This document shows positions 11,501 to 24,373 of a stretch of DNA of 32,000 nt, piece after piece. Source of the DNA: Parasynechococcus marenigrum WH 8102 (lineage in GTDB: Bacteria > Cyanobacteriota > Cyanobacteriia > PCC-6307 > Cyanobiaceae). The translations under genes were made by a program, and so were the position numbers. The notes beneath the pieces were generated by a model. The model worked only from the letters and a program-made list of their open reading frames with translations. It was not told where the DNA came from and did no database searches. The stretch lies in NCBI RefSeq assembly GCF_000195975.1, contig NC_005070.1, forward strand, positions 930,001-962,000. The letters are read 5' to 3'. Each line of letters begins with the position of its first letter. The first letter of the stretch is position 1.

Positions 11501-14500
11501 GGCAGGAACGGACCTGAGCTACTTGATATTACTACTGATAATACCCAGAAGCAGTTTGTTCGTTTGTACTCTGCTATTGCTTCTTCACCTATTCTTTCTA
11601 ATACCTTTAATGAAGGTCGTGATCTACTTGTCCAGAGTGTTCTGGATCTTATTAATCCCCCTTCTCCATTACCCAACCGACTTGTTGATAATCTGAACGA
11701 TCTTTTTACTGAGAAGACTAGTTCTTTAGCCTCTTCTTTTGTTCTGCCCTCTGGTATTGCATTGTCTCCTGAAGGTTTAGATAGATTAAACCGAGTTACA
11801 AATTTGGTAGGTACGGGTGGTTCTTCTGACTTGTTAGCAGCCTCTGAATTTTCTACTAATACCCCTCAGCTATTAAATACTCTTAGTGACCAAAATATTA
11901 TCTCTGATACAGGGTCTCTTTTGAATAATTTTGGGCAGCCTGTATTGAGTGACGGTGAACCGCTTATTATCTCTGACTACCAATCATTGGTTAGTTCTTT
12001 TGTTGATACAAATCTCACTACATTTTCCGACGACTTCCTTGAGAATGATTCTATCTCGGGCGAATTAGCGCGTAACATTGTCCTCAATGAGATTTCTGAA
12101 CGAGTTGTTCAGGCTGCTGATTCATCTACGGTACCGGAAGTTATTAGTTCTACTCTAAATAATCTACTTGCTGCTGCCTTGCAGTTAGATCCTGTTGCTG
12201 AGGACGCTAAAACTGAGTCGAATCGTCTTCTTAAGATGGCTCTGAGTGTTGATTCTTTGGTTGAGCAGCGTCCCCTTTATGAAGTAGACGAGGCCACAGG
12301 TCAGCCCAAAACTGTTTTTGACCCGAGATCGAATACTGATGTGTTTGTTGTTAATGAGGAAAATCAGGCCTTTTATAATGCTGCACTTGAGCAGCAAGAT
12401 GTTTTACAGGCAGATTATGTTGGTCTTACCTTAGAGCAGTGGAAGGATATTGATAACCAACCTAATTCTGCTAAAGTTAAAGCTGACCGTATTAACGCTG
12501 TTAAGATAGGAATCTCTTATGCTGATTATCTTAATTTTGCGAACTTAAATCCTCTTGACTCTGAGGTTTGGTCTATTTATCCTTTTGTTGGTTACGTTGA
12601 GGCAGGTACATTTGATTCTGATGACTTCTTAGTTGTTGATAATCTCTTTGTTGACCCACAGGCAGCTCTCAATAATCTTATCTCAAGTGGGATTAACAAA
12701 GGTGTCAGCTTTGATGACTTCTCAAGTCTTCTCTTTAATCAGCCAATTTACACACCAAGTACAGTATCGTCTGATTCTGGTGCTGAGATTACACGTGCAG
12801 ATGCTATTACATATGCCTCTACTGATCCATCCAGTGCTCTTTATATTGCCGCAATGGACTCTAATTTCCAGGAGGGTAATGTTATTAAGGCATATAAGAC
12901 TACCAACCCCAACCCTTACAAATTTACTATTGAGGATTTTGATGACGCTAATTTACTTACCGATGGCCTTCAAGTTAGTTATCTTGTAAACTATACATAT
13001 GGTGATTTAGCTGTCGGTGATTCTGGTTATACCTTTAATGTTGCTTCTGGTTATTCACCAGATCTTGTTGGTCATGACTTAGATGAGTTTAATTTGGCCT
13101 TGAAATATGTTTCCGAATATGACTTATTAAGCTACGGTGCCACTCCTGTTGAGTCAAGTAATGATTTACCTGTTGAACCTGGTCAGCAAGTCTTTACATG
13201 GGAGTCTAACCCAGAAAATATAATTGATAAGTACGGACAGCAAAGTGCGCCACTTTATGATCTAGATGGACGTGTCATTACAAAAGCTGGTTGGTATGAC
13301 TTCACTCTTCGTCCAACAACTGAGACTGAATTTGATCCCGAATTAGAGGAGCAGGTGCCAGTTTGGCGTGACGGTGCTCGCTTTATTTATGCGGATTATT
13401 ATACTGTTGACGTCGGTAACTTCTTAACCGACAATGATCCTGCAAACGACGAACTATTAATACCAGCCAATAGCTGGTATGTACCTTCTCAATCTGACTT
13501 ACTTGAAGAGGAAGAGGGTGTTCTACCGGAAGGTGTCGCTTTTAGGCGTATTGTTGGTTTAGAGCTAAACTTTACAGACAACGCATTCGGAGATAAAGAC
13601 CCAGGCATTGGTCGAGTTGTTGACCCCTTTGGTACTGGTGCAAAGTCTAACTCTTCATCGCTGTTTACTTCTAACTTTACTTCAGACAATCTTTTCAACG
13701 AGGAACCACCTGATCCTAAATTTATTCTTAAAAGAAATGAGAAAAAAGTATTAAAGACTGCGGTAGTTTTAGATGAGACAAAAAAAGCTGTTGATCTCGA
13801 AGCAGTCGTTTTAGACGAGACTCAAAAGGCTGTTGATCTTGATGCTGTTTTGTTAGAGGACGATCAGGTAGCGGTCTCTCGTGATCTTCTTGTCACTGAT
13901 GAATTGTTTACTTCTGATGTTGACATGACAAATCTCCGCCTTGTTGATGAGAATGCTGTGATTCTTGCCCTCAATGAAAAGACTGTCGATATTGATGCGG
14001 TCATACTTGAGGACGATCAGATTGCTATTTCTCGTGATATTTTGGTTACTGACGAGTTATTTACATCTGATGTCGACCTAACTAATCTTCGTCTCGTCGA
14101 TGAAGATGCTGTTGTTCTTGAACCCACTCAGAAGGCAGTTGATATCGACGATGTTGTTTTATTAGACAATCAGATAGCAGTTGATGATGATGCTGTTATC
14201 CTAGATCCAACCGAAAAAGCTGTAGATATTAATGCAATCATTCTTCTGGATGATCAGGTTGCTTTCAATATTGATGATGTTCCTGTCTCTCTTGATGGAT
14301 TAAAACTTGTTCCTGATGATGCTGTTGTTCTGGATCCTAACCAGCAAGCAGTTGATGTCAACACGGAGATTCTTCAGCCTGATCAGAAGGCTGTACCGCT
14401 TGATGCGCCAGAAGTTGCCAATGACGCATCAGGTTCTGGTAAGTACAAGCAACCACCTTCTGATATTAAGCAATCCGGTTCCGGTGTAGATGCTCCTGGT

Positions 14501-15514
14501 ATCAGTGATATTGCGGCACTCAAGTTTGGTGAGGATGCTCCTGGTACTGGTAACGGAGACGGTAATGGCCAGGGGGCTGGAAGTTCAAACAGCTCAGGTT
14601 CAGGTGTTGGTGTATCAATGAATGAACAAGCCACTCAATTCCCTGAGGGAGAGGGTGATGGTGATAGCGACTCTGTAGAACAACGAGGTCAGGGAGCGCC
14701 TGGACAGGGTGATGGTGAAGGCGGAGAAGCAGCACTTGGTGATGACCAAACTCCCACAACACAGCGTAAGCGTGGTCTTATGTTGCAGCCTATTGTTGAA
14801 TCAGAAAGTGTGGATGAAGATGCTAAATCTTCCTCGAACCTTTTGAAAAATTTAAGCGAAGGCTCAATAATGGGTACAAATCTCCTTGACGCACTAACAC
14901 TTGGTGGAGGAATTCTTTACGCTCTTTATGCTCCTCAGGCTGTTAAACCTATCAAACGTACTTTTGGCTCTCTTTTGGGCAGACTAACAGGACGTAGTAC
15001 TTCTATTCCAGAGCGAAAAGTAGCTACTGTGTTTGCTATGAAGCTTCCTGATGGAACACAGCGACTTATTGCTGCCAAAGTTACAACCCAGTCAATTGAT
15101 ATAATTGCTCAGCAGGACATGCCTTCTGGTATGAGTGTTACGCAAGCTGGTAACCAGGAGCAAGTTGATTTTGCCTTTAACCAATTGTTGGATAAAATAA
15201 CGAATGAATCTTTTGATTTGATGCTTGTTGGACCTCGTCTCCGTAATCAAATATCTCTTGTTGCCAAGCTTGCCTCAGATTCCCTTATCCTTGATACTTC
15301 TTCAATTGAGCAGAAACTTAAATCATGTTCTCAAGATGAGGTTAAGTCATTACAACAATGGCTTGATCGTCCCAGCTCCACTCCTCCTGAGTCCAATCCT
15401 GTCAAGGATCTATTGAGTGTACGTCAAAGTGATTATTCGAAGAGTTTAATGACTCAGCAGGCTTCTATGGCCAGTCTTGTAGAGCTGAGTGTTGCATTAT
15501 CTTGGAAGGACTGA
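2..15514 (+). CDS. swmB: Giant repetitive secreted/cell-surface protein, SwmB-like; 5'-partial (frame already open at nt 2, true start upstream of window); stop TGA at 15512-15514
   Basis: One uninterrupted frame of 5,170 codons in AT-rich DNA; the 'M' at nt 53 in the ORF track is an internal TTG. Modular architecture: 127-aa tandem domains (nt 1-2560); many ~100-aa cadherin/Ig-like modules, each ending in (V/I/F)ND(A/D/T/I/L/P)P(V); VCBS-like modules (DG.FTFDP..AYEYLA.GEEQ.I.VNYRVTD); ~100-aa domains of the pattern P.L.SA....I.L.FSE.LD....F.V....V.Y.V...V.L.L...V.V.Y...I.D..GN.L..F, which I associate from memory with the cyanobacterial SwmB repeat family (TIGR02059). These are followed by a ~1,100-aa unique region, 14-aa acidic repeats, a G/S/D linker and a unique C-terminal domain. 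I found only one Cys (..LKSCSQ..) in the visible protein and no RTX GGxGxD nonapeptides. The CDS is near-certain. The swmB family assignment is by eye (~0.6). Confidence 0.9.
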   Translation, partial: NFANLGALFSVKVGSQTLSYGASGAGTFSLGKDGSNNNKLVFTINTEADYLQNDQEIVEIIYNADPSSTTHNLVDSDGNQTTDFTFTAANSFLAPSVSSATTTSSNVVTMVLSENALSNSANLSAITNFANLGALFSVKVGSQTLSYAASGAGTFSLGKDGSNNNKLVFTINTEADYLQNDQEVVQIIYNADPSSTTHNLVDSDGNQTTDFAFTAANSFLAPSVSSATTTSSNVVTMVLSENALSNSANLSAITNFADLGALFSVKVGSQTLTYGASGAGTFSLGKDGSNNNKLVFTINTEADYLQNDQEVVQIIYNADPSSTTHNLVDSDANQTTDFTFTATNSFLAPSVSSATTTSSNVVTMVLSENALSNSANLSAITNFADLGALFSVKVGSQTLSYGASGAGTFSLGKDGSNNNKLVFTINTEADYLQNDQEVVQIIYNADPSSTTHNLVDSDANQTTDFTFTATNSFLAPSVSSATTTSSNVVTMVLSENALSNSANLSAITNFANLGALFSVKVGSQTLSYGASGAGTFSLGKDGSNNNKLVFTINTEADYLQNDQEVVQIIYNADPSSTTHNLVDSDANQTTDFTFTATNSFLAPSVSSATTTSSNVVTMVLSENSLSNSANLSDITNFANLGALFSVKVGSQTLSYGASGAGTFSLGKDGSNNNKLVFTINTEADYLQNDQEVVQIIYNADPSSTTHNLIDSDGNQTTDFTFTAANSFLAPSVQSLTTPTNSSVKLILTENALSNSTNISSITNFASLGGLFTLKIGSQSLSYGTGAGTFSLTKDGSNNNILIFTINTQADYIQNVEESVQLLYNADSSSTTHNLIDSDGNHTSDFNLAASVSFQAAPSGQIVISDILENSTLSLSSTDILSLISDPNNDTLNTSSITSLSIAATSNATVALGSSTLTGPVSDTWTFSPGDFFGEVQLTAVVNDGNSGGALSTTFTSTFNVLPVNDAPVQSSSATLSSVARGQNKDITLSDLLGNITDTETTQLSGTLTSDLSIVGNSVSTNKGTITYDSVNTKWVYNSTSTNSAGDSITDSGSVTLSYVVTDGTNQVSASATFTVDDTNAAPTGYIEFSDILENSILKFTSADILNRISDPNADTLNYASITSLTIVDNSNNSSIPNGSLLRQDDTSNNLSNFTFSPAEFTGVAKISAVVEDGNGGSTTFTTTFNVLSVNDDARFNSSDSVSPTLLSASLSSADSKSISLYFSESLDNSIVIENNTFVVKDSNNATLSYTVTRDTTDYSSNDSVITLVLDSAISDTNNLTVSYSGSSIVDASSANSYAGNALSAFSNQVVSNTRVNSPLIISGSLGLDGKTLTLNSSKALDSTDVISSSTFTVQSSTDGSNWVTVPYSVDGDSSDYINTASSIVLKLDDALMYSHQVRVSYASTTIEDSSQTYDLATFSNFSIQNRSSVFTLESLASTNSVIYEDLGFDGTPTTAQIISLAAEGTVNPDSVVVGNYYTIESVGSTDWTAIGASANAAGTTFKATNTGTGNGTASTNYLILDSEILGKYYDVESSALSLYNVVADNGTFKRNDANTGWFYRPVVNYSGQVVVSFDVFDGTSFTPGSATLDVQSINDIPVRIAGNVSGIIIPEGASTDTSPPTLAHASVNGSSVLLHFSEALDTSTVVNSSMFDIKVGGNEVTYTVNGSTADYSKSNTTLSLTLSSAVSATDVVTIDFPSYTRITSLGTTTNWTNHGAVQTAAGNFVVGREYIINTAGDTSFTGIGATNNNVGTVFIATGAGSGSGNALETNFVATSSITGDGVSVDNVLKDTAFSANKLVAFSGSSISNITGTDTTVPVLTSALLAPDGKSVKLVFSEPLDTSVSLNNSTFNVKMSADGVNYSAHSYSIDATSAAYSDGDSTISLTFATAVDYQALLTLDYQGTNIKDTSGNALATIATASPMSIKNNVRVSLGLSALSYLPGLGDDESINSSTIQTLTYKITALPSSLVGQLQLIDGTPVVLNDTYSIDQLRQLQFESFSGANGTTSFTINIADSAGSSINEVIPIGTSFVNDGPIQTGPAFVFSAVQEDNTLDITKAQLLTGYVDEEGNPMFVNGLSASNGTLSQSGDTWTFTPIEHFVGTVDLMYVINDSNGGGILATNSFQITEVNDAPVRDDGSSFNTLTVLEDGPVSSMNLPSTLSYSTGGEGRSTGETSQSLTYTVTSLPVTGGGASAGTIYKDNGTSVAAGSFVSGTKYYISASGTTDFTQIGAANNNVGTSFTATGAGAGTGEAVAITTVDLSNPSLTLTELKGLKFQPAANIVGTFTLGFTVSDDGPNTNDGNVKTDKNSLTQSVGISILNFNDTPVLPTPSIAFTSNGTEDTAFTFTEADFLAGVTDPDLDSNANPTNPFGDVLSISNLSASNGTLIGPVNGVYTFTPSANFNSDLGGVVTFNYLINDGQGGSIANTITRTIDPGNDSPVATFNTAQFASENGGTLTGQLTATDIELSRGDNAGKTLTYTQTNTVAGFALAVDGSGSFTFDTADTTYRYLALNETLTLTINYQVTDEVLGTNFGSLTAQDLANTKGSFTITLTGSNDDPYAVGGALAALTPGTEDTTSTFTIADLTQGYADYDTSDVLTVQSPTAYKVVDGVTTDEIVGSFTPNLVNNILQSYTYQPSANFTGNLEVKYVVSDSKGPGIAGSSTLVINAVNDTPVPTFAFNQSASEAGAVVTGQLTADDTEITTGEQAATSLTYSLVGDAIAGLTIAADGQFTFDPTNAAYEYLANGEEQVITVNYRVTDPGNLFADKSFTITINGTNDNVVVDLNAIATLAAATEDTAFVVSIDQLLQGFSDVDTSDVLVVQGLTAFKANAAGTALDEVAGTLTRVETNGVLTGYQFTPVANYNGNVALKYTVVDGNGSDIAGSLVLNVNAVNDIPVPSFGINQVTYEADTLVTGQLTADDIEIGTGEQLATSLIYTLSGNAIPGFAIANDGAFTFDPTNPAYEYLAAGEEQVITVNYRVTDAGGLFAEKNFTFTVKGTNDDPVVDLGAIAALAAATEDTPYTVSVDQLLQGFSDVDTSDVLVVQGLTAFKADAAGNALDDGAGTISRVEVNGVLTGYQFTPLDNYNGNVILKYTVADGNGPGRAGSLPLIVNAVNDLPVPTYDTNLVNTEGNELVTGQLTAVDNEIITGEQLPTSLTYTLSGNAIPGLTIAADGAFTFNPQDAAYDYLAFGEEQIINVNYRVTDAGALFAEKTFTITVKGTNDDPVVDVNQTVALAAATEDTEYLITTADLLAGYSDVDTTDVLTVESLVVYKADNAGLPTTELGGSVTPVVVNGVTTGYNLLPADDYFGDVVVTYIVSDGNGPGVPATSTITVNPVVDVPRVGNLGEKGLNLGQTPEDTPTTFTTADLLAGFTDPDGFELTIKPDSVTNAYSTITLEGDTYTFTPNLNFSGSTQIDFTVVDAAGNEVPFSKFIDVIEVNDPPSITLDRDALDSDYKSKTYLIPFEQIFAVVPANPVVELIDPDLSITTQVVGDSLSIEIPAAYTEDVSFMFGDTVVDPNSLFTLDVLRPLQVSDRNVVAGFERFFALSDFGFGDVEGLPLQSVLIQVPDTSLGTIRVGSGNFDTDTENVIQLTPLASSDFNQSNVFEVTREQIETGSVYFVANPSPLNAGKSADLEFIVKDESGDLSTLPGLLRITIQEAPESVQDFIANSTYEPIFDAELGLNRFDSVDTIISSIGITRDEALSVIRSTLPIRTAANSFDASVETPFSYVTQNEVEYRWDIGAFDIFEYDFTSNTQTLVLDFASLTIDSDLYQHFADLYTYSLANDLDNAYLASKLVELIPGSNDRLNKIEDAFSLSNYDDIYSYLTASGRNGPELLDITTDNTQKQFVRLYSAIASSPILSNTFNEGRDLLVQSVLDLINPPSPLPNRLVDNLNDLFTEKTSSLASSFVLPSGIALSPEGLDRLNRVTNLVGTGGSSDLLAASEFSTNTPQLLNTLSDQNIISDTGSLLNNFGQPVLSDGEPLIISDYQSLVSSFVDTNLTTFSDDFLENDSISGELARNIVLNEISERVVQAADSSTVPEVISSTLNNLLAAALQLDPVAEDAKTESNRLLKMALSVDSLVEQRPLYEVDEATGQPKTVFDPRSNTDVFVVNEENQAFYNAALEQQDVLQADYVGLTLEQWKDIDNQPNSAKVKADRINAVKIGISYADYLNFANLNPLDSEVWSIYPFVGYVEAGTFDSDDFLVVDNLFVDPQAALNNLISSGINKGVSFDDFSSLLFNQPIYTPSTVSSDSGAEITRADAITYASTDPSSALYIAAMDSNFQEGNVIKAYKTTNPNPYKFTIEDFDDANLLTDGLQVSYLVNYTYGDLAVGDSGYTFNVASGYSPDLVGHDLDEFNLALKYVSEYDLLSYGATPVESSNDLPVEPGQQVFTWESNPENIIDKYGQQSAPLYDLDGRVITKAGWYDFTLRPTTETEFDPELEEQVPVWRDGARFIYADYYTVDVGNFLTDNDPANDELLIPANSWYVPSQSDLLEEEEGVLPEGVAFRRIVGLELNFTDNAFGDKDPGIGRVVDPFGTGAKSNSSSLFTSNFTSDNLFNEEPPDPKFILKRNEKKVLKTAVVLDETKKAVDLEAVVLDETQKAVDLDAVLLEDDQVAVSRDLLVTDELFTSDVDMTNLRLVDENAVILALNEKTVDIDAVILEDDQIAISRDILVTDELFTSDVDLTNLRLVDEDAVVLEPTQKAVDIDDVVLLDNQIAVDDDAVILDPTEKAVDINAIILLDDQVAFNIDDVPVSLDGLKLVPDDAVVLDPNQQAVDVNTEILQPDQKAVPLDAPEVANDASGSGKYKQPPSDIKQSGSGVDAPGISDIAALKFGEDAPGTGNGDGNGQGAGSSNSSGSGVGVSMNEQATQFPEGEGDGDSDSVEQRGQGAPGQGDGEGGEAALGDDQTPTTQRKRGLMLQPIVESESVDEDAKSSSNLLKNLSEGSIMGTNLLDALTLGGGILYALYAPQAVKPIKRTFGSLLGRLTGRSTSIPERKVATVFAMKLPDGTQRLIAAKVTTQSIDIIAQQDMPSGMSVTQAGNQEQVDFAFNQLLDKITNESFDLMLVGPRLRNQISLVAKLASDSLILDTSSIEQKLKSCSQDEVKSLQQWLDRPSSTPPESNPVKDLLSVRQSDYSKSLMTQQASMASLVELSVALSWKD
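7307..10020 (+). repeat. In-frame super-repeat: 4 tandem units of 223-235 aa, each a VCBS-like domain plus a cadherin-like domain
   Basis: The unit-initiating aa(c/t)ga(c/t) codons of the (G/V)ND(S/T/I/L)PV motif lie at nt 7307, 8012, 8681 and 9350, giving spacings of 705, 669 and 669 nt. Each unit contains ..VTGQLTA.D.EI.TGEQ..TSL.Y.L.G.AI.G..IA.DG.FTFDP...AYEYLA.GEEQVI.VNYRVTD.G.LFA.K.FT.T..GTNDDPVVD... then ..LAAATEDT.....DQLLQGFSDVDTSDVL.VQGLTAFKA.AAG.ALD...G...RVE.NGVLTGYQFTP..NYNGNV.LKYTV.DGNG........L.VNAVND. Units 2-4 are clearly more similar to each other than to unit 1. Confidence 0.9.
13760..14415 (+). repeat. Degenerate 14-aa acidic repeats (A-V-[VIL]-L-[DE]-x-x-[QK]-K-A-V-D-[LI]-[DE]) containing a nested 153-nt (51-aa) tandem duplication
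   Basis: AVVLDETKKAVDLE / AVVLDETQKAVDLD / AVLLEDDQVAVSRD ... AVVLDPNQQAVDVN / TEILQPDQKAVPLD. The 51-aa block AV(L/I)LEDDQ(V/I)A(V/I)SRD(L/I)LVTDELFTSDVD(M/L)TNLRLVDE(N/D)AV..........VDID starts at nt 13844 and again at 13997. Confidence 0.85.
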
Positions 15515-16053: not shown

Positions 16054-16536
16054 TCAACAGTGGTCTTTCAGTTCTCTCCTGATCTTTGGCACGGCGTCCG
16101 GCTGTCCTTGCATCAAGAAAGCTTCTCTTTCTATATCAAATTTCTCGCTTTCATAATTTCGATATAGGATTGACTCTATTGCTATTTTTACCGCTTCATC
16201 AACATTTGGCATCCATCCAATTGGCTGTAATGATCCTGTCCTACAGGTTTGCGCTGCATGAACAGCTTCATGTAAAAATGTTGTCCTAAAGATTCTCATT
16301 TGTTGTGTTATAGGTGCAATCCATATAACTTTCTTTTTTGTATTTATCAATCCGTAGGTACCTTGCATCGGCGGTTTCTCAAATTTGATTTTAAATCCAG
16401 CCTCTATCAATGACAATCTAAGTTCATTCAAGTCTTTTACTAGATCTATTTCTTCTGCCCTAGATGGATTTACTGTAGTTAGAGCCAAAAGCGATGCAAT
16501 TATGGCTGTCGAAATGTGTCTGTTAATATTTATCAT
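16054..16536 (-). CDS. Small secreted protein with HExxH motif (putative periplasmic Zn-metallopeptidase-like protein), last gene of the stator-like operon
   Basis: 160 aa. N-terminal signal-peptide-like segment MININRHISTAIIASLLALTTVNPSRA|EE. Motif FLHEAVHAAQ (HExxH followed by Q). ATG start (16534-16536) overlaps the upstream gene's TGA by 4 nt (ATGA). Same low GC as its neighbours. Confidence 0.65.
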   Translation of the reverse strand: MININRHISTAIIASLLALTTVNPSRAEEIDLVKDLNELRLSLIEAGFKIKFEKPPMQGTYGLINTKKKVIWIAPITQQMRIFRTTFLHEAVHAAQTCRTGSLQPIGWMPNVDEAVKIAIESILYRNYESEKFDIEREAFLMQGQPDAVPKIRRELKDHC

Positions 16537-17207
16537 TGAATTGTCATGCTACGGCCTGAATTACCCCAGAAATTGATAGGGTCATCTTTGTACCAGGGTT
16601 CCCAACCAATAGGAACTTTATTTTTTCTGGCAGATCGTTTTATCTCTCTGTACATCTTATACCCTGATGCTTCTAGTACTATGAAAACGGCTTGATTATT
16701 TGTGTTTAGGTTTTTCATTAGTGTGTCTAGCCAATCTCTCAATTCTTCACTCTCAGAGTCAATCGTAGGTTCTTGTGACCTTAGGATTTGTCCTTTCTCA
16801 TGATTGATTGTCATTGATATACCATTAATTTGCTCTTCCTTTTCCCATCCGTTTAATTTGCTATTGCAGATTTCTAGCTCTGGAGATAACAAGTTTTCAC
16901 AACTTCTTACCTCTTTGGCCCTCTCGCGGTCTAGTTCAGCCATTCTATTTATTGCAGGCTGTAAATCCCACACTCCTTCTTTTGCTGCTTGTAAAGTCCA
17001 GAATTGTTTCTTTGTTTCTTTTTTCATTGGCGCTTGTATATTGACTGCACTTGTTGCAGCGAAGACACCAGCAAGTGAGCTAACTAGCACAAGTACCCCA
17101 ACAACATTGCATAAGAGATCTAATAGGCTGTCTGAGCTGTCAGCTAACCCAGATGAACTTTTTTTGCCCTTTTTACGGAGAAGGATTTGTTTCTGTTCGG
17201 TATTCAT
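16533..17207 (-). CDS. ExbD/TolR-like single-pass membrane protein (long paralogue, 224 aa)
   Basis: Basic N-terminus (LLRKKGKKSS). Then an Asp at the start of one hydrophobic helix (SLLDLLCNVVGVLVLVSSLAGVFAA), as in the ExbD/TolR/MotB transmembrane Asp. The C-terminal part (..NQAVFIVLEASGYKMYREIKRSARKNKVPIGWEPW) resembles the ExbD periplasmic domain and that of the neighbouring paralogue. ATGA start/stop overlap at 17204-17207. No OmpA-like peptidoglycan-binding domain. Confidence 0.6.
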   Translation of the reverse strand: MNTEQKQILLRKKGKKSSSGLADSSDSLLDLLCNVVGVLVLVSSLAGVFAATSAVNIQAPMKKETKKQFWTLQAAKEGVWDLQPAINRMAELDRERAKEVRSCENLLSPELEICNSKLNGWEKEEQINGISMTINHEKGQILRSQEPTIDSESEELRDWLDTLMKNLNTNNQAVFIVLEASGYKMYREIKRSARKNKVPIGWEPWYKDDPINFWGNSGRSMTIQ

Positions 17208-17653
17208 TTGGGACTCTCCGGAAACTTAACTTTAAGTTCACTTTCGATTGGTTCGTAGCCATATTCTAACTTATTGAACTCTGCTTTCGATCTTAGTTTT
17301 TCAAAACAAAGATATCCTTCAGGTCGTACACCTATGATTATGTATTGGGGTGTTTCATCAGTTCCTAGGCTTTTTATGATGACATCTACTTTCTCATCGT
17401 TTATATTCATATCCATACTTTCGTTTCGGATTAACATGTTCATATTTCCCTCCTTATTGCATACAATATAATTTCCATTTTTACCTTTACCTTCTCCTCC
17501 GGCAGGCAGGAGTTTCACCACATTGACTCCTGGTTTAATTTGCAAAGCGAATATTACGAGTGTCAATGTCTGGACACCAATTGTTGCAGTCATTATGTTT
17601 AGGAACGATGACAGATCCATACCTGCGTCGCCCTTTTTTCTGCGTCTTCCCAT
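17204..17653 (-). CDS. ExbD/TolR-like single-pass membrane protein (short paralogue, 149 aa)
   Basis: MGRRRKKGDAGMDLSSFLNIMTATIGVQTLTLVIFAL has a basic N-terminus, an Asp, then one TM helix. The C-terminal part (..PQYIIIGVRPEGYLCFEKLRSKAEFNKLEYGYEPI) is paralogous to the 224-aa protein. Its ATG (17651-17653) overlaps the TAA of the MotA-like gene (TAATG). Confidence 0.6.
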   Translation of the reverse strand: MGRRRKKGDAGMDLSSFLNIMTATIGVQTLTLVIFALQIKPGVNVVKLLPAGGEGKGKNGNYIVCNKEGNMNMLIRNESMDMNINDEKVDVIIKSLGTDETPQYIIIGVRPEGYLCFEKLRSKAEFNKLEYGYEPIESELKVKFPESPK

Positions 17654-18966
17654 TATCTTGACCTAATTTTGTCCATAAGTATACCTATGCCAAATCCATT
17701 CCTTTCTCTTCTCATGTTCTTATTCAGCAGGTCAATGGATTCTTTCAATTCAATCAACGATCGTAATTGAGCTTTTTGATCTATACCGATCCTATTTTCA
17801 GCTAACAAGTCGCTTAGTTCACCGGCAAGCAAATTCATTGCATTTCTTATGATGTCAGTCTGTTCCTGTAAGCTTAGGCGTGCTTCACTCACTCCTTCTA
17901 CAGAATCTCTGACAATTGTTGTAAGTGGTGTTAGTTTTTCTATCGTTGCTTCCGTTAATTTTTCTGCATAAACCTGGGCTGGTTCTACCAGTACTGATGG
18001 ATCTGGTAGATGTTTTTCGAACGCATCGCTTATCAACCCTGCAATGTCGTCCCCAAAAATCTCTTTTGGTGTGGGTTTCTCTGGAGTTTTCTCTGATGTT
18101 CCACCGCCAGCACCACCTCCAGTCCCTTCTCCAGACTGTGACGCTATTTCACCGCTACCCAGAGGACTCAGTGATAAGACTCCATCTCTCACAACTCCGT
18201 CAATTTGGCTCAGTAATCTATCTTCAATCTTTTCACAAAGTGTGAGTGGGAATGCCAAAAATACTGATATTACCAGTGCTAGGAATGTTGTGTCGAACGC
18301 TGTACCAAGTCCCCCAGTAACTTGAACCAAGCCATCTTTTAGACCATCAACGTTGTCTGCGTTACTAAGAACGGCATCAAATGAACCAACAGCTTGGGAC
18401 ATTCCAATAACAGTTCCTATAAATCCAGTCAGTGGAATTGCCCATAATAATAGCTTTGGAAAACTAAAACTACTACTCATGGATAATTCGTAAAGATCAA
18501 CATCTCCATCGGCAGCTCGTTCCAGCTGAAACGCTGATCCTGTTGATTCCCATACATCCAATAGGTGTAGAAGTCGTTTACCGACGAGAGATCCAGAATT
18601 CTCAGATTTAAGTTTTATAGCCTCTAAATCACCTTGCCTTACTAAACTTGGTATTTCTAGATCAAATGCTAAATAATCTTTCTGTGCTTTTTGCAAAATG
18701 CGTAATTTGTTAAATAAGAACCACCCCAGCATTCCGCCCAATATGAGTGTTGCAACTTGGGTTGGTCCACGCTGATGAAAAAGGGCATGCCCTGGCATTG
18801 CGTCTGGAAAGTTCACCGCCCAGATCAAAAAGCCAGCAATCCCCCCGGTGATGATCCACCGACCGAATTTTGGATCAAGGTCATTGCCAAGGCCCAAGCT
18901 TACCGAAGGTACAGGTACGCTTCTGCTTCTTGCATCTGCTTCGAGTTGTCCTGTGGAGGTTGTCAC
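17653..18966 (-). CDS. MotA/TolQ/ExbB-family ion-channel protein with an extended C-terminal tail (437 aa)
   Basis: Four hydrophobic segments: WIITGGIAGFLIWAV, VATLILGGMLGWFLF, LLLWAIPLTGFIGTVIGM, TFLALVISVFLAFPLTL. Both family hallmark motifs are present (..PLTGFIGTVIGM.. and ..GGLGTAFDTTFLALVISVFLAFP..). These are followed by a Gly-rich linker GEGTGGGAGGGTSEKTPEKPTPKE and ~140 aa of probably helical sequence not found in canonical ExbB/TolQ. GTG start at 18964-18966. Confidence 0.8.
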   Translation of the reverse strand: MTTSTGQLEADARSRSVPVPSVSLGLGNDLDPKFGRWIITGGIAGFLIWAVNFPDAMPGHALFHQRGPTQVATLILGGMLGWFLFNKLRILQKAQKDYLAFDLEIPSLVRQGDLEAIKLKSENSGSLVGKRLLHLLDVWESTGSAFQLERAADGDVDLYELSMSSSFSFPKLLLWAIPLTGFIGTVIGMSQAVGSFDAVLSNADNVDGLKDGLVQVTGGLGTAFDTTFLALVISVFLAFPLTLCEKIEDRLLSQIDGVVRDGVLSLSPLGSGEIASQSGEGTGGGAGGGTSEKTPEKPTPKEIFGDDIAGLISDAFEKHLPDPSVLVEPAQVYAEKLTEATIEKLTPLTTIVRDSVEGVSEARLSLQEQTDIIRNAMNLLAGELSDLLAENRIGIDQKAQLRSLIELKESIDLLNKNMRRERNGFGIGILMDKIRSR

Positions 18967-19000: not shown

Positions 19001-19324
19001 TTACTTTTTTTCTGTATTCCATTCTTGCCATTCTACTTCTAACTCTCCAGCATCATTAGCTCCTGGTGCTGGAATCTTTGTTAGCAGTTCGTCTGGTAGT
19101 CCGAGACGTTGAAAGACCGTTTGTCTTTGTACCGCCGGCATTGCGGAAAACGACCTCACCACATCTCTTACTTTGTACTCTGAGTAGACCATTTTCATTA
19201 ATTCATCTTGATCCTCATCTGGAAGATTTTTAAACCAATTGACAAACTTTTCGGTTTTAGTTTTAAGGTCCATTTTCGGAGGGTTCAGCGGGGGCATCCC
19301 TCCAATTATAGCCCCTAATGTCAA
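19001..19324 (-). CDS. Hypothetical protein (up to 107 aa), sitting between the T1SS genes and the stator-like operon
   Basis: Open frame with island-like composition; 18-nt gap to the HlyD gene and 34-nt gap to the MotA-like gene. The start is ambiguous: TTG at 19324, ATG at 19297, ATG at 19273. Acidic and helical-looking (NLPDEDQDELMKMVYSEYKVRD). No recognisable family. Confidence 0.55.
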   Translation of the reverse strand: MTLGAIIGGMPPLNPPKMDLKTKTEKFVNWFKNLPDEDQDELMKMVYSEYKVRDVVRSFSAMPAVQRQTVFQRLGLPDELLTKIPAPGANDAGELEVEWQEWNTEKK

Positions 19325-19342: not shown

Positions 19343-20503
19343 TTACTTACTTGATTTTATTCTAGTAAGCGAATCTAAGGCCTTTTGTACCGCATCTGTT
19401 AGTAATGATATGACCCGCTTATCTCTAAGAATGAGATTCACTTGTACACTTTGGCCCGCACTGATTTCGTATTTTTCTCCATCTTTTTCAAGATAGTCCT
19501 TGTCAATCTTCACGTATGCCGGGAACCTAGGCATTGGATTTTGTTGATCTGGTTCTAGTGGAAGTGTCCCCACTGACTTCAAGGACCCTGTAATTGATCC
19601 AAATTGTGTATACGGAAAAGCATCGACCCTTATTTGGGCTTTCATTCCAGGCTTCATAAAACCAACATCTTGATTAGTAATGTATATTTTTGCCTCGATT
19701 TCCCCTCCTGGGACAACTTTTACGAGTGTCTCTCCCGCCGAAGCCGCATACCCTGCGCTTGATGGAATCATCCCATAGACAATTCCTGCAATCGGTGCGC
19801 TCAATTTTTCTTTTGTTATCGTATCCTGAACTTCAACCATTTGCCGTTCTAGTTCTGATATTTCACGCAGGGATTCTTGTTTTAGTTTGTTGAGCTGTGC
19901 TTCTACTTCCTCCAAGTCCGCTTTTACAACTTGTGCCTCTGACTCCAGTTGTTCTACTTTATTCCTTTGCCTTAGCAGCTCTGTTAGTTGCATTGCGCCA
20001 ATCTCTGCTAAGGGTATGATATTTGTATATATACTTGATTCTGTATTTAACGATCTATTTATACCATTTAATCGCTCGACTACTCCTCTCTTTCTAGCCT
20101 CGACAGCTCTCGACTCTTCTTCAAATCTTTTTCTTTCGAGCTTTATTTGTGTTTCTAATGTTTCTTTTCTCTTTCGAGATACGTCTGCGTCAAATCTCAA
20201 TAAGGTGTCTCCTGCATTAACTTTTTGCCCCTCCTTAGCTACAATATCCTTAATTACTCCCCCGAATGGTGCTTTGACTGGTCTTTCAGCACCCAGCGGT
20301 TGTAATTCTCCAGGAGCCAGTACTACTTCGTCAATTTTTGCAAATACAGCAAATATAAATCCGAGTGATGCTGTCGAAATAATGGTCCATGCCAGAGCCT
20401 TGCTCCAAAGAGGTGCCGGCCTTAGTTGTACTTCTTGATGATTGAGTGGCCTTACAGCCAGACTTGAGTTGGTTTTTGGGCTATTTGAATTTGAGGTAGT
20501 CAT
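19343..20503 (-). CDS. HlyD-family membrane fusion (periplasmic adaptor) protein of a type I secretion system
   Basis: 386 aa. N-terminal TM ALAWTIISTASLGFIFAVFA. Lipoyl-like motif VKAPFGGVIKDIVAKEGQKVNAGDTLLRFD. Long coiled-coil stretch (KRKETLETQIKLERKRFEEE...LEEVEAQLNKLKQESLREISELERQ). Second lipoyl half LSAPIAGIVYG and a beta-barrel end. ATG at 20501-20503, 2 nt after the ABC gene stop. Confidence 0.85.
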   Translation of the reverse strand: MTTSNSNSPKTNSSLAVRPLNHQEVQLRPAPLWSKALAWTIISTASLGFIFAVFAKIDEVVLAPGELQPLGAERPVKAPFGGVIKDIVAKEGQKVNAGDTLLRFDADVSRKRKETLETQIKLERKRFEEESRAVEARKRGVVERLNGINRSLNTESSIYTNIIPLAEIGAMQLTELLRQRNKVEQLESEAQVVKADLEEVEAQLNKLKQESLREISELERQMVEVQDTITKEKLSAPIAGIVYGMIPSSAGYAASAGETLVKVVPGGEIEAKIYITNQDVGFMKPGMKAQIRVDAFPYTQFGSITGSLKSVGTLPLEPDQQNPMPRFPAYVKIDKDYLEKDGEKYEISAGQSVQVNLILRDKRVISLLTDAVQKALDSLTRIKSSK

Positions 20504-20505
20504 TT

Positions 20506-23500
20506 TTAGGATTCTTGTTGGTGGTAAAGTGTTGCATAGCGGCCATCCAATGCCATAAGTTCTTCATGAGTACCTTTTTCAACTAATGCCCCTTGATCCA
20601 TTACAAGAATAACATCAGCAAATTTGAGAGATGCCAATCTATGAGTTATAAAGAAAACGGTGCTATCCTTATACAATTCTATCAGATTTGCCGTTAATCT
20701 TCTTTCAGTGTCTACATCAAGAGCACTTGTTGCTTCATCTAGTACTAGTAATCTTGGTCTCCTGATTATCATTCTTGCTATTGCCATTCTTTGTCTTTGT
20801 CCTCCACTCATTCCAGCTCCTCTTTCCCCTACGGAGCTGTTGTAGCCGGCGGGCATAGCTTGAATAAATTCGTGTGCACAGGCAATTTGTGCTGCTACTA
20901 CAACTTCCTCAAATGATGCATCAGGCCTTGCTAACGCAATATTTGACATTACTGACCCGTCGAACAACAGACTATCTTGTGGTACTACACCGATTTGCGA
21001 TCTTAAGGAGTAGAGATCTACTTTGCTAATGTCATTATCGTCTATGAGAATTTGGCCATCGTTTATTTCGTATAACCTTGTTAGCATTTTCAACATTGTG
21101 CTTTTGCCAGAGCCACTACTTCCCACGACCCCAATGAATGAACCTTGTTCAATTTTGAAATTAATGTTTGATAGATTAAGTGCTCCTTCCTTCCCAAATC
21201 TAAAGTTAACACCTTTATATTCCACTGTTCCTACTATGGGAGGTATTGGTGGCTTTTGTTCTCCAGTAATTTCTAATTCTTGGGGATGATCTACGATATC
21301 AGCCAGTCTCTCTAACGATAATGCAGTTTCTTGAAAATTTTGCCATAAGTTTGCCATCCTAAGCAAAGGACTTGTCACGTAACTTGCTAGGATTCTGAAG
21401 GCAATTAATTGTCCAAGTGTTAGTTCACCTTTTAATACTAGTGAGGCTCCAATCCACAAAACAATAAGTCCTGAAAGCTGTTCAAGAAACTGACTTGCTG
21501 ATCCGGCCGCTGTGCTTGTTACGGTGTTCCTAAAACCCGATGTTATCTGACCTCCGTAGAGCTGTTGCCATCGCCACCGACTATGAATTTCCATACTCTG
21601 GCCCTTAATGGTTTCCATTCCTCCAACGGTCTCAACTAAGTGACTTTGTACCCGAGCGTTAGCTTCAGCCTGTTCTCTAAGTTGCTTTCGTATGATTGGT
21701 GCTGATACTAATGTCAACCCCACAAATAATGGAACTACTACTAATGACCATACTGTTAATTGGACTGAGTAAAGTAACATAACAGCAATGTAGATGATTG
21801 CAAAAATTGCATCTAACACTACCGTTAGCGCTGTTCCGGTCAAAAACTGTCTTATTTTTTGTAGTTCATTGATTCTGCTGCTTACTTCACCGACTGGTCG
21901 ATCTGAAAAGTAACCTAATGGAAGCCTAAGTAGGTGATCGATGATTGATGAACCTAATGAGATATCGATTCGATTTGTAGTATCTGCAAATAGGTATGTC
22001 CTTAGCGAAGATAATACCGCTTGAGCTAGACTCATGCCTATTAACAATGTTCCAAGCACATTAAGGCTGCTAACATTTCCTTGGCTGATCACAGCATCTA
22101 TTATTTGTTGTATCAAAAGTGGATTTAATAATCCAAATAGTTGTACAAAAAAACTGGCGACTAGAACCTGAATAAGGACTGCTTTATGTTCTTTTAAAGC
22201 TGGTATAAACCATCCCAACCCAAATCGTTTCTTAGGTGATACTTTGCTTCTTTGAATCGTTAAAACCTGTATTGTTCCATCATCGTTTCTAGCACCTAAG
22301 TCTTTTGTTGAAACTTTTATTTGTCCTTCTTCGGGGCAACTGATCAGTGCTTGGCCAACCATGTCCGCTGACCATAATATTATTGGTTTATTCTTACGTA
22401 TTGCTATTGCAGGTAATTGTAAACGCCCTATCTGGTTTTCCGTTACATTTATTTGTGTTGCTCTAAGGCCAATTAAGTCAGCAGTAGCAGCAAGTTGAAT
22501 CAAACCAATTGATCTTTCTCCCGTTTCTGATAATTCATTTCTCATCAATTGATCTTCAATTATTCTCTGTATTACATCTTTTCTAAAAGGTATATCAAAG
22601 TATCTCGCAAGCATTCTTAATGCAGCCATTGGAATCCCTACAGGTCCAGACCCATCCAACTGTGGAAAGCTCCCGTCATCGCCAAGCTTTCCATACCAAT
22701 CTTCAAGAGCCTCCTGCTGTTTTTCTACTGCAACTATTGCTGTGCTGCTTTCTTGCCAGTCAGGTTCTACGACTTCAGCCTCAATTTGGAGAGGTGCAGC
22801 CTCGCTAGAGTCTGGGCTTACGACTAATACTTGTGGGACATTGATTGGAGGTGTAGCTCCACTTTTAGAGATTAATCTTGCAGGAACTTTCCCTTGAACT
22901 ATTAACTTCATTGGTCCAAGTAATTCTTCACCTGGCTTGCATCCAGAAATGTTTGAACTGCTTACCAACCACGGCCCCCATTTAGAATCAACAAAGTGTT
23001 CACCTGGAGGTAGTAATAATATTTTGTGATCTCCTTTTGATTCTGCTATTTTGTTGCTTGCCCAGTCTTTTATCTCGTTTTTCGTGTTATTTAGAGGCGA
23101 ATTTGTTAATATACTAACTCCATACAATTCTTCAATGTTAGGTTCAAGAAATTCATTTGCAAATTCTGCGTTTTCCGCTATTACTTGCAGAAATCCAGTT
23201 TGAGGAAGCAGCCATAGCAAGCTTGGCTGCGATGCGGCTAATGCATAACCAGTTACCCCCCTGAGGATTCCAATATGTCCAGCTTGATCTCCTGGAGCTA
23301 ATCTATATAGTGTGAAAGGTTCTTCTCTTTCATCTAATGCAAGCAATCTCATCTGACCCTCTGCTATGAGGGCTATCCCTGGAGGAAGGTCTGAAAAATC
23401 ATATAATTTTTGACCCGGACGTAATCGTAATGGTTGAATTGTTTCTGCTAGTTTTGCCTTTTGCTCTGTTGATAGTTTTGAGAAAGGCGCCCAGGAGTTG

Positions 23501-23529
23501 ATTAGGCGCAATGCCTGTCTTAATTGCAT
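20506..23529 (-). CDS. Type I secretion ABC exporter with N-terminal cyclic-nucleotide-binding-like domain and a degenerate (non-catalytic) C39-like domain
   Basis: 1007 aa. Residues ~1-130 are a cNMP-binding-type beta-barrel (LRLRPGQKLYDFSDLPPGIALIAEGQMRLLALDEREEPFTLYRLAPGDQAGHIGILRG). Residues ~290-440 are a C39-like fold (GPVGIPMAALRMLARYFDIPFRKDVIQRI) with no Cys or His at the catalytic positions. Then a six-helix exporter TMD, Walker A GSSGSGKST, ABC signature MSGGQRQR and Walker B LLVLDEATS. Confidence 0.9.
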   Translation of the reverse strand: MQLRQALRLINSWAPFSKLSTEQKAKLAETIQPLRLRPGQKLYDFSDLPPGIALIAEGQMRLLALDEREEPFTLYRLAPGDQAGHIGILRGVTGYALAASQPSLLWLLPQTGFLQVIAENAEFANEFLEPNIEELYGVSILTNSPLNNTKNEIKDWASNKIAESKGDHKILLLPPGEHFVDSKWGPWLVSSSNISGCKPGEELLGPMKLIVQGKVPARLISKSGATPPINVPQVLVVSPDSSEAAPLQIEAEVVEPDWQESSTAIVAVEKQQEALEDWYGKLGDDGSFPQLDGSGPVGIPMAALRMLARYFDIPFRKDVIQRIIEDQLMRNELSETGERSIGLIQLAATADLIGLRATQINVTENQIGRLQLPAIAIRKNKPIILWSADMVGQALISCPEEGQIKVSTKDLGARNDDGTIQVLTIQRSKVSPKKRFGLGWFIPALKEHKAVLIQVLVASFFVQLFGLLNPLLIQQIIDAVISQGNVSSLNVLGTLLIGMSLAQAVLSSLRTYLFADTTNRIDISLGSSIIDHLLRLPLGYFSDRPVGEVSSRINELQKIRQFLTGTALTVVLDAIFAIIYIAVMLLYSVQLTVWSLVVVPLFVGLTLVSAPIIRKQLREQAEANARVQSHLVETVGGMETIKGQSMEIHSRWRWQQLYGGQITSGFRNTVTSTAAGSASQFLEQLSGLIVLWIGASLVLKGELTLGQLIAFRILASYVTSPLLRMANLWQNFQETALSLERLADIVDHPQELEITGEQKPPIPPIVGTVEYKGVNFRFGKEGALNLSNINFKIEQGSFIGVVGSSGSGKSTMLKMLTRLYEINDGQILIDDNDISKVDLYSLRSQIGVVPQDSLLFDGSVMSNIALARPDASFEEVVVAAQIACAHEFIQAMPAGYNSSVGERGAGMSGGQRQRMAIARMIIRRPRLLVLDEATSALDVDTERRLTANLIELYKDSTVFFITHRLASLKFADVILVMDQGALVEKGTHEELMALDGRYATLYHQQES

Positions 23530-23647: not shown

Positions 23648-24373
23648 TCACATCGTCTTCTGGGACACTATATCTCTTGACTTCTTCAGTTCTTCTGCTA
23701 GGAGTTCCTCGCCCAGTTCCGACAATATTTTCAACCTCTCTTCTTTGTTGAAGACTGCCGGCCAGAGTTTTTCACTTATAACGATTCCCCATCCGTTTTC
23801 AATTTTTATTGGCGGCCATACTTGTTTGGGTTGACTAATCCTTAGCAATTCAGCAAGTGCATCAGGTAACTCTTGTAGTTTAACTGGTCCAACCCTACCG
23901 ATTTTTAATCCCTGAGGAGGATTTGTCGAGAGTAGAATAGCATCATCAACGGAGCATTCTCCCTCTTTGATGCGAACAAATACTTCGCCAGCAAACGCTT
24001 CGTCATCTATCCATATCATTGAGTAGCTAACTTTGTCTAACTTTGCCTTTTCTTTTAGGAATTTTGTTGCAGCTTGGTTTTTGAACTTCTTTTCGCAAAC
24101 TTTAATCCATCTATAATATCTTGTTGCCCTTGTTAGTAACGATTCCTTGTCTACGTTCTCGCTCCTCATCCATTTCGCAAGTTCTTCTTGGGTATAGATG
24201 TTCATGCTACTTAAATATACTTGTATTACCTCTTCCTCCGATGCGTCTAGTGTTATTTCCGTCTCGATCAATTCATCAAGTACTAGTTCTCGTTTTATGG
24301 AGCCTTCGATGCCCCATCTTTTCAGATCTTCAGGATTTATAGCTTTTGTGCTCACTTGGTGCTTTGCCGACAC
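23648..24373 (-). CDS. Parvulin/PpiC-type peptidyl-prolyl isomerase-like protein (SurA-like accessory gene of cyanobacterial T1SS clusters), first gene of the array
   Basis: 241 aa, GTG start (24371-24373). The C-terminal half follows the parvulin pattern: VSYSMIWIDDEAFAGEVFVRIKEGECSVDDAILLS....G.IGRVGPVKLQELPDALAELLRISQPKQVWPPIKIENGWGIVISEKL. The functional call is by-eye only; the CDS itself is solid. Confidence 0.55.
   Translation of the reverse strand: MSAKHQVSTKAINPEDLKRWGIEGSIKRELVLDELIETEITLDASEEEVIQVYLSSMNIYTQEELAKWMRSENVDKESLLTRATRYYRWIKVCEKKFKNQAATKFLKEKAKLDKVSYSMIWIDDEAFAGEVFVRIKEGECSVDDAILLSTNPPQGLKIGRVGPVKLQELPDALAELLRISQPKQVWPPIKIENGWGIVISEKLWPAVFNKEERLKILSELGEELLAEELKKSRDIVSQKTM

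Follow-up and report, generated by a model that had tools for sequence, protein, structure and literature searches.

A MotA/TolQ/ExbB-family protein and two single-pass partners encoded with a type I secretion system opposite swmB in Parasynechococcus marenigrum WH 8102: a candidate ion-driven accessory complex

Swimming in Synechococcus was discovered in 1985, and a motility survey of 2020 names only SwmA and SwmB for it, with the energy source entered as 'Unknown' (PMC7004002). The locus described here raises the question of what an operon resembling an ion-driven stator unit does opposite the gene of one of these two proteins. It lies in a stretch of 32,000 nucleotides from Parasynechococcus marenigrum WH 8102 (contig NC_005070.1, positions 930,001 to 962,000), hereafter called the window, to which all coordinates refer. 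On its minus strand three adjacent genes, g1, g2 and g3, encode a MotA/TolQ/ExbB-family protein and two single-pass membrane proteins; this trio is preceded by type I secretion system (T1SS) genes and followed by a gene for an exported-looking protein, g4, and the whole set converges with a giant gene. Our favoured reading, which we judge to have an even chance of being right and which argues by analogy, is that the trio would be an ion-driven accessory complex assisting or gating the export, retention or positioning of SwmB-type proteins.

The giant gene occupies positions 1..15514 of the plus strand, where the C-terminal 5153 codons of an open reading frame (ORF) that leaves the window at its left edge can be read; Pfam finds SWM_repeat, Cadherin_5, Big_9 and Cadherin_4 domains in it. 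A first-pass annotation, made from the letters of the sequence, had called its product a giant SwmB-like surface protein. We compared the ORF with Table S5 of an exoproteome study, which lists tryptic peptides of WH8102 SwmB (NP_897046.1, 10,791 aa) with their positions. All 24 SwmB peptides that fall within the last 5153 residues match the window ORF at a single constant offset of 5638, and therefore the giant gene is not merely SwmB-like but swmB itself.

The ORF list shows eight tightly packed genes on the minus strand between 16054 and 24373, in the order peptidyl-prolyl isomerase (PPIase)-like gene, ABC exporter, HlyD, small ORF, g1, g2, g3 and g4, after which comes the convergent giant gene. 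Specifically, g1 (437 aa) maps to 17653..18966, g2 (149 aa) to 17204..17653, g3 (224 aa) to 16533..17207 and g4 (160 aa) to 16054..16536, and the junction check bore out both the four ORFs and their translational coupling as first described, the three junctions being the start/stop overlaps TAATG, ATGA and ATGA. The T1SS genes encode a 1007-aa ABC exporter (20506..23529, minus; TIGR01846 type_I_sec_HlyB, 2.7e-210) and a HlyD-family membrane-fusion protein (19343..20503, minus; Pfam HlyD_3, 1.8e-18; TIGR01843, 2.9e-46), and the gaps from the g1 to g4 genes to these two are short, with all genes on the same strand. The GC content is 0.41-0.42 in the cassette and the giant gene versus 0.62 in the flank, which holds housekeeping genes (malQ, an epimerase-like gene, LytR_cpsA_psr, phosphoribosyl pyrophosphate synthetase and GHL10). 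The adjacency to the T1SS genes, the convergence with the giant gene and the shared low GC thus stand as claimed, as does the statement that TonB, TolA, Pal and flagellar genes are absent from the window, none appearing among the Pfam and NCBIfam matches of the window proteins. By gene order, g4 to g1 are SYNW0954-SYNW0957, HlyD is SYNW0958 and the ABC exporter SYNW0959, in agreement with the paper that describes SYNW0959 as an ABC exporter (PMC3091678). Each of g1 to g4 belongs to a conserved family with hundreds of homologues, so that the gene set is far beyond what chance would give.

Against PF01618 (MotA_ExbB), g1 scores 29.3 bits over residues 144-244, above the gathering cut-off of 22.9, and the same match is precomputed for nearly all g1 homologues; this is one of two Pfam checks that the first-pass annotation had put forward, and it came out in its favour. 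Hydropathy gives four hydrophobic segments (37-53, 69-85, 172-188 and 228-244) in the MotA-like 2+2 layout, and both predicted hallmark motifs, PL[TML]GFIGTVIGM in the third transmembrane segment and GLGTAFDTT[FY]LAL in the fourth, are invariant in 119-120 of 120 aligned homologues and kept in distant trios as well. The conserved residues of these two segments presumably correspond to the ion-path residues in E. coli. In addition, the loop between the second and third transmembrane segments is conserved. The Gly-rich linker and the tail of about 140 aa noticed in the first pass are both present: the linker is specific to picocyanobacteria, and the cytoplasmic tail is strongly conserved in the alignment, holds a 17-residue invariant stretch, LISDAFEKHLPDPSVLV, and has a profile that matches coiled-coil chains.

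The products of g2 and g3 each have a basic N-terminus followed by a single hydrophobic segment. A sequence-level relation of the two to ExbD, TolR, MotB or SiiA was looked for in Pfam, NCBIfam and PDB profile searches, with a negative outcome; the second proposed check, against PF02472 (ExbD), gave no match for either protein, a result that the first-pass annotation had itself named in advance as one that would speak against its proposal. Structure prediction tells otherwise for g2. Its AlphaFold2 model reaches a predicted local distance difference test score (pLDDT) of ~80 over residues 58-143, and the best Foldseek match among 350,542 PDB chains is E. coli TolR 5by4 (E 1.1e-2, prob 1.00, template-modelling score TMt 0.58); compared with H. 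influenzae TolR 2jwk, the model gives a TMt of 0.72 and a root-mean-square deviation of 2.5 A over 75 columns. This predicted TolR/ExbD-like periplasmic fold restores the TolR-like assignment of g2 despite the missing PF02472 match. The AlphaFold2 model of g3, with a pLDDT of about 82-95 over residues 66-215, has in its periplasmic part a helical hairpin that carries two conserved Cys residues as a pair, followed by a beta-beta-beta-alpha-beta-alpha-beta-beta unit as in g2; Foldseek returned no TolR match for g3.

The wider g2 family, for which an exhaustive profile search yielded 273 representatives (E <= 1e-3), carries an ExbD-like transmembrane motif, [SD]LFPF[LI][SDN][IV]L; the Pfam ExbD model recognises one of 97 distant family members (E 0.002), and two distant members are labelled ExbD by the Joint Genome Institute (JGI). 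As for the relation between g2 and g3, described at first as paralogues, BLASTP (E 5e-6) and hhalign (86.8%) support it and the hidden Markov models (HMMs) of the two cross-match each other's families, but the similarity is detectable in the C-terminal ~60 residues only.

The first-pass annotation had also placed an ion-relay Asp in the transmembrane helix of both proteins, and here the two part ways. In g3, Asp30 is found in every full-length homologue, within the motif L-[LM]-D-x-L-x-N-V-[VL]-G, which resembles the LLDVL of TolR. In g2, Asp13 is replaced by Asn in ~19 of 114 homologues (about a sixth) and lies 6 residues ahead of the position aligned with the ExbD/TolR Asp, which in g2 is invariably taken by Asn. 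The invariance of Asp30, taken with the variable and misplaced Asp of g2, points to g3 as the ion-binding partner and to g2 as an Asp-less second one; judged by these residues, a channel with g3 as the ion-binding 'B' subunit and g2 as an Asp-less second 'B' subunit is likely.

The association of stator-like genes with a T1SS and a giant gene, as first noticed, is no coincidence of the window, because the same eight-gene cassette recurs elsewhere. Together with a convergent giant gene it is complete in strain BOUM118 (L012), in a marine single-cell genome (L002), in a Cyanobium from Lake Mendota (L006), in Synechococcus UW140 (L007) and in a Vulcanococcus metagenome-assembled genome (MAG; L013), and a further long contig (L014) has it in fragmented form. 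Its range thus extends from clade III in the sea to Cyanobium and Vulcanococcus in fresh water, these being six loci besides the window (L002, L006, L007, L012, L013 and L014), all of which carry orthologues of the PPIase-like gene; the 4-nt overlap of g3 and g4 is also present in L002, L006 and L007. Identity to BOUM118 is 96.6% across the cassette and 75% inside the giant gene, and A18-46.1 and RS9915, two strains of clade III, have g1 orthologues that are 97% identical (4 of the 437 residues differ in A18-46.1). The low-GC island usually sits beside malQ, as in the window, BOUM118, the Vulcanococcus MAG and another long contig (L012-L014), and this malQ-side position is a site on the chromosome that marine and freshwater lineages have conserved. 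The cassette of UW140 has the same GC content as its flank. Among species-representative genomes, g1 signature peptides are found in eight picocyanobacterial loci only and most representatives are without them; given so few carriers, the cassette is patchy and island-like. None of the picocyanobacterial loci recovered has the trio outside this cassette.

Other cyanobacteria carry the trio by itself. In a metagenome set of 79 loci, which represents the genomic context of one distant g2 subgroup, local HMM searches detected a g1-like gene in 61, a g2-like gene in 76 and a g3-like gene in 64, always adjacent and in the order g1-g2-g3, and these distant proteins keep all the diagnostic motifs. The HMM searches turned up no HlyD, small ORF, g4, PPIase-like gene or SwmB C-terminal domain at any of the 79 loci, which makes g4 and the 90-aa product of the small ORF specific to the cassette. 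Anabaena cylindrica PCC 7122 and Microcystis aeruginosa NIES-2481 are the named carriers, and their three genes bear the annotation 'MotA/TolQ/ExbB proton channel family protein, hypothetical, hypothetical'. Across 36 trio loci, a census of 135 neighbours brought up neither a conserved partner nor any secretion or Ton gene, and it showed no general association with defence. Since the trio stands alone without a T1SS or a giant gene, its core activity is independent of the T1SS and of SwmB, and the trio is, on our reading, an old and autonomous cyanobacterial stator-like unit.

Some particulars of the stand-alone loci deserve mention. On the Anabaena cylindrica plasmid pANACY.03 (L094) the trio, at 7001-9580, sits amid type III-B CRISPR Cmr genes and viperin, and on plasmid p1 of Microcystis NIES-2481 (L095) the trio at 6971-9571 has as neighbours a methylase, a nucleotidyltransferase (NTase)+SLATT pair, a 1094-aa helicase-related protein and HNH and GIY-YIG nucleases. 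In such settings the trio by itself may have a part in defence, although the metagenome census did not extend this to the other loci. A histidine kinase of ~476 aa (HisKA + HATPase_c) lies directly upstream of the g1-like gene on the same strand in L031-L038 and L046; it is the sole recurrent neighbour of stand-alone trios (10 of the 135 neighbours) and belongs to one sub-lineage. In the non-picocyanobacterial locus L049, an ABC exporter with a C39 peptidase (3459-6035, minus), which matches the window ABC protein at E 1e-170, is divergent from the adjoining trio (6526-9156), an arrangement that may represent a step on the way by which trio and T1SS came together.

The wide occurrence of the stand-alone trio, amid varied housekeeping neighbours, is what a general ExbB-ExbD-type energiser would lead one to expect, serving transport at the outer membrane or in the periplasm, for example inorganic iron uptake, and housed in the swmB island by mere co-location, with no action on the T1SS or on SwmB. 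The trio resembles ExbB-ExbD and TolQ-TolR in the PF01618 domain of g1, the TolR-like fold of g2 and the LLDxL Asp of g3. In Synechocystis, sll0477-0478-0479 (exbB, exbD3, exbD4) are regarded as a third exbB-exbD cluster, which is induced by iron stress and has the same three-gene layout as the trio, one ExbB-like gene followed by two for hypothetical proteins, a likeness of gene layout; ExbB-ExbD complexes are moreover reported to be essential for inorganic Fe uptake, and the mitomycin C response differs between the cassette genes and swmB. In contrast to ExbB and TolQ, however, g1 is about twice as large and has four transmembrane segments and a tail, g2 and g3 fall outside the Pfam ExbD family, and no gene for a TonB or TolA partner or a TonB-dependent transporter lies nearby. 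A Ton/Tol system proper was discarded as a candidate, as neither the window nor the surroundings of the stand-alone trios hold TonB, TolA, Pal or a TonB-dependent transporter. Furthermore, in all the picocyanobacterial loci recovered the trio is inside the T1SS operon, overlapping g4 and facing the giant gene, and it is missing from most picocyanobacterial species representatives, which would be odd for a housekeeping function. All in all, we regard a bystander energiser as rather unlikely.

A closer precedent for the whole arrangement is found in Salmonella. There SiiAB, a MotAB-like proton channel, serves the T1SS of Salmonella pathogenicity island 4 (SPI-4) as an accessory and controls the retention of the giant adhesin SiiE, with Asp13 of SiiA serving proton conduction (PMC6272769; bioRxiv 10.1101/641415), and it is listed as the 'type I secretion' member of the 5:2 motors (PMC12204202). 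As in SPI-4, a MotA/ExbB-like protein and a single-pass Asp-bearing protein are here encoded with a T1SS exporter and adaptor beside a giant surface protein. Unlike SiiAB, the trio has two B-type subunits, a TolR/ExbD-like fold in g2 and no OmpA-like peptidoglycan-binding domain, and, unlike SPI-4, the operon encodes a long conserved g1 cytoplasmic tail and no outer-membrane component, has extra genes (the HExxH, 90-aa and PPIase-like ones) and belongs to a cyanobacterial host. The giant proteins differ as well, SiiE serving host adhesion and SwmB being needed for swimming. The g2 and g3 profiles did not match the chain of the SiiA periplasmic domain in the PDB. With no peptidoglycan-binding domain, no sequence link to SiiA and two TolR-like subunits, the module stands outside the SiiA/MotB family, and the resemblance would be one of SiiAB-like working and not of orthology.

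On the favoured reading, g1, g3 and g2 would together form a stator-type, ion-conducting complex of the inner membrane in which, by analogy, a MotA/ExbB-like pentamer of g1 would surround a dimer of the TolR-like single-pass subunits (5:2), the invariant Asp of g3 binding the ion and g2 acting as the Asp-less partner. An old cyanobacterial trio would thus have been recruited in picocyanobacteria into one operon with an ABC exporter, HlyD and three cassette-specific genes. Ion-motive force would then most probably assist or gate the T1SS, either in late export steps or by keeping the giant protein in the envelope, putting it under tension or letting it go, while g4 might act in the periplasm as a processing enzyme on that protein or on its anchor. 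What the data show are the families and folds, the conserved residues, the build of the operon, the synteny and the identity of the giant gene; the 5:2 assembly, the ion conduction, the physical coupling to the T1SS and the role of SwmB as substrate are what we infer. Passage or retention of the giant protein had been offered in the first pass as the alternative to a driving role; it gains from the SiiAB precedent and from the cassette synteny, and loses from the occurrence of the trio elsewhere on its own.

Several observations weigh against this reading. Neither g2 nor g3 matches PF02472 at E <= 1, and among the PDB chains their family profiles meet no ExbD, TolR, MotB or SiiA by sequence. 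An OmpA-like peptidoglycan-binding domain, such as SiiA and MotB have, is absent from the module by Pfam and NCBIfam, just as the first-pass annotation had said of g2 and g3. The cassette has no TolC-like gene. In Anabaena, Microcystis and 61 of the 79 metagenome loci the trio has neither a T1SS nor a giant gene nearby. Mitomycin C induces SYNW0951-0961 in WH8102 and swmB is not induced (PMC3744912). Lastly, the 5153 SwmB residues in the window contain not a single RTX (repeats-in-toxin) nonapeptide of the form GGxGxD or GxGxGxD, the mark of an RTX-type T1SS substrate; without such repeats, and with an unusual C-terminal hydrophobic segment, SwmB is not a proven substrate of this T1SS. The protein is present in the WH8102 exoproteome, and we infer its export by this particular T1SS from synteny only.

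A trio of this make-up has another parallel in Myxococcus, where AglRQS, one TolQ/MotA-like subunit with two different TolR-like single-pass subunits, powers surface motility. Two different TolR-like subunits are what the present trio shares with it; AglRQS works with the Glt envelope complex, unlike the T1SS-linked trio, and the likeness is one of architecture. GldLM/PorLM is the ion-driven inner-membrane motor of type IX secretion, which in motile species, as in Flavobacterium gliding, also propels the giant adhesin SprB and is found in non-motile relatives too. GldL and GldM are unrelated to the PF01618 and TolR-like families, and the secretion system is a different one. AglRQS is listed, as is SiiAB, among the 5:2 motors (PMC12204202).

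These parallels lead to the boldest explanation, in which the complex of SYNW0957-0955 would itself be the swimming motor, using sodium- or proton-motive force to move or rotate T1SS-anchored SwmB against the cell wall and thereby driving the SwmA S-layer to generate thrust. The module adjoins swmB in WH8102-type genomes and in the clade III genomes A18-46.1, RS9915 and BOUM118; SwmB is required for swimming, the motor and its energy coupling are listed as unknown in reviews, and MotAB-like motors have been speculated on earlier for Synechococcus. The MotA-like 2+2 layout of g1, with its conserved cytoplasmic loop and tail, would suit a motor, and GldLM/PorLM illustrates that a secretion-system motor of non-motile relatives can still drive motility. 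Synechococcus swimming is also reported to be sodium-coupled (Willey 1987), which would fit an ion-driven stator. Nevertheless, the same cassette is present in freshwater Cyanobium, Vulcanococcus and UW140, lineages for which swimming is not known, the trio occurs in non-swimming cyanobacteria too, and the module has no peptidoglycan anchor. We therefore consider a swimming motor improbable. Of the first-pass proposal that the module is the energy-coupling unit driving the giant protein, what stands is the synteny with the T1SS and swmB; nothing ties the module to swimming itself.

The long tail of g1 calls to mind yet another MotA-like protein, ZorA of the Zorya defence system, and the trio could in principle be a Zorya-like anti-phage module in which g1 and its membrane partners sense phage perturbation of the envelope and signal inward. 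Weak ZorA matches of g1 (PADLOC, E 1.1e-3; NCBIfam ZorA_2, E 0.014), its coiled-coil-like tail, the setting of the Anabaena and Microcystis plasmid trios amid defence genes (CRISPR type III-B, viperin, methylase, NTase+SLATT, helicase, nuclease), a type I restriction-modification system beside the trio in L036 and L038, and the DNA-damage induction of the WH8102 island would all be in line with it. The ZorA_2 score, however, is 14.5 bits, far under the cut-off of 100; no equivalents of ZorB, ZorC, ZorD or ZorE, and hence no ZorB-type peptidoglycan-binding partner and no effector genes, accompany the trio; and PADLOC has no match for g2, g3 or the small ORF and a weak HORMA match for g4. Moreover, the census of 135 neighbours at 36 loci, given above, speaks against any general association with defence, and the fixed partners in picocyanobacteria are T1SS genes. 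An anti-phage function is accordingly, in our judgement, very improbable.

If the favoured reading of an export or retention complex is followed, g4 is of particular interest. Its product has a signal-peptide-like N-terminus; in the homologue alignment HEAVHxAQxC is invariant, and ExEAF and a Cys at the C-terminus are further marks; orthologues hit DUF6782, a family of putative metallopeptidases, below threshold in four of six cases (best E 3.7e-4), and on these motifs we regard g4 as a putative periplasmic metallopeptidase. In the LapA/LapG/LapD system, the surface retention of a giant T1SS adhesin is set by a dedicated periplasmic protease (PMC6272769), and g4 could play a comparable role on the giant protein; LapG is a cysteine protease whereas g4 is an HExxH protein, and LapD has no counterpart here.

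Of the other cassette genes, the small ORF (to 19324, minus) encodes from a conserved Met a highly conserved cytoplasmic protein of 90 aa (19001..19273) that has no transmembrane segment and is likewise annotated as 90 aa in BOUM118. The first gene of the cassette, at 23648..24373 (minus), is weakly PpiC/SurA-like (Rotamase, E 0.016). In the ABC exporter, ABC_membrane and ABC_tran domains are joined by a Peptidase_C39-like domain and a cNMP_binding-like N-terminus. The latter takes up the N-terminal ~120 codons (23170-23529), ahead of the C39-like domain, at a Pfam E of 8.4e-6 that falls just short of the cut-off, and is kept in the BOUM118 and Vulcanococcus orthologues; it suggests a possible cyclic-nucleotide control of export.

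Turning back to SwmB, six C-termini of giant proteins from marine and freshwater loci align over ~240 conserved residues (14783..15511, plus, in the window), the proteins being otherwise very different in length and repeats. In SwmB this region contains a hydrophobic segment, NLLDALTLGGGILYALYAP (nt 14882-14932), which has a hydropathy of 1.45 over 17 residues, borderline for a transmembrane helix, and includes an LLDAL motif; a domain of ~200 aa follows. The region has no Pfam or NCBIfam match, nor is there any family match in the last ~1500 residues, and it is a candidate secretion signal or anchor. Among the peptides listed for the WH8102 exoproteome none derives from SwmB beyond residue 10332, despite good tryptic peptides there, which hints that released SwmB may lack its C-terminal ~460 residues. 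Elsewhere in the protein, at window positions 53 to ~2450, the translation contains at least six near-identical tandem copies of a SwmB unit of ~119 aa that includes VKVGSQTLSYGASGAGTFSLGKDGSNNNKLVFTINTEADYLQNDQE. In the assemblies published for BOUM118 and RS9915, swmB is in each case interrupted by a gap (PMC7522525).

Upstream of the first cassette gene lies a non-coding stretch of ~950 nt (24374-25320, minus) that is extremely A-rich and T-poor on the transcribed strand, with an AT skew of -0.495 and a GC content of 0.36, and that matches neither a tRNA nor an Rfam family; it could be a leader of unusual length or mark where the island ends. In the window, promoter and terminator scans gave no better signal than in shuffled sequence, and tRNA and Rfam scans gave no match.

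In conclusion, the swmB gene of the model swimmer faces an operon with a dedicated T1SS and a stator-type channel, which narrows the matter to three or four small genes to be tested. We found no report in the literature searched linking a MotA/ExbB/TolQ-type gene to swmB or to a Synechocystis-independent T1SS function in cyanobacteria: a stator-like T1SS accessory is a known kind of complex, and what seems not to have been described before is this combination of subunits, together with the cyanobacterial family and its link to SwmB. Should the role be limited to export or retention, this would be the second MotA-type complex on a T1SS after Salmonella SiiAB and the first in a phototroph, with a subunit make-up that differs from SiiAB in having two TolR-like partners and no cell-wall anchor. 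The trio, a MotA-like protein with two ExbD-like ones that have no Pfam model, is an unrecognised family that many cyanobacteria carry, and in its capture by a secretion operon one sees how a stator unit can be re-used. If, on the other hand, the motor explanation proved true, the cassette would be the T1SS counterpart of the GldLM/type IX secretion/SprB gliding machine.

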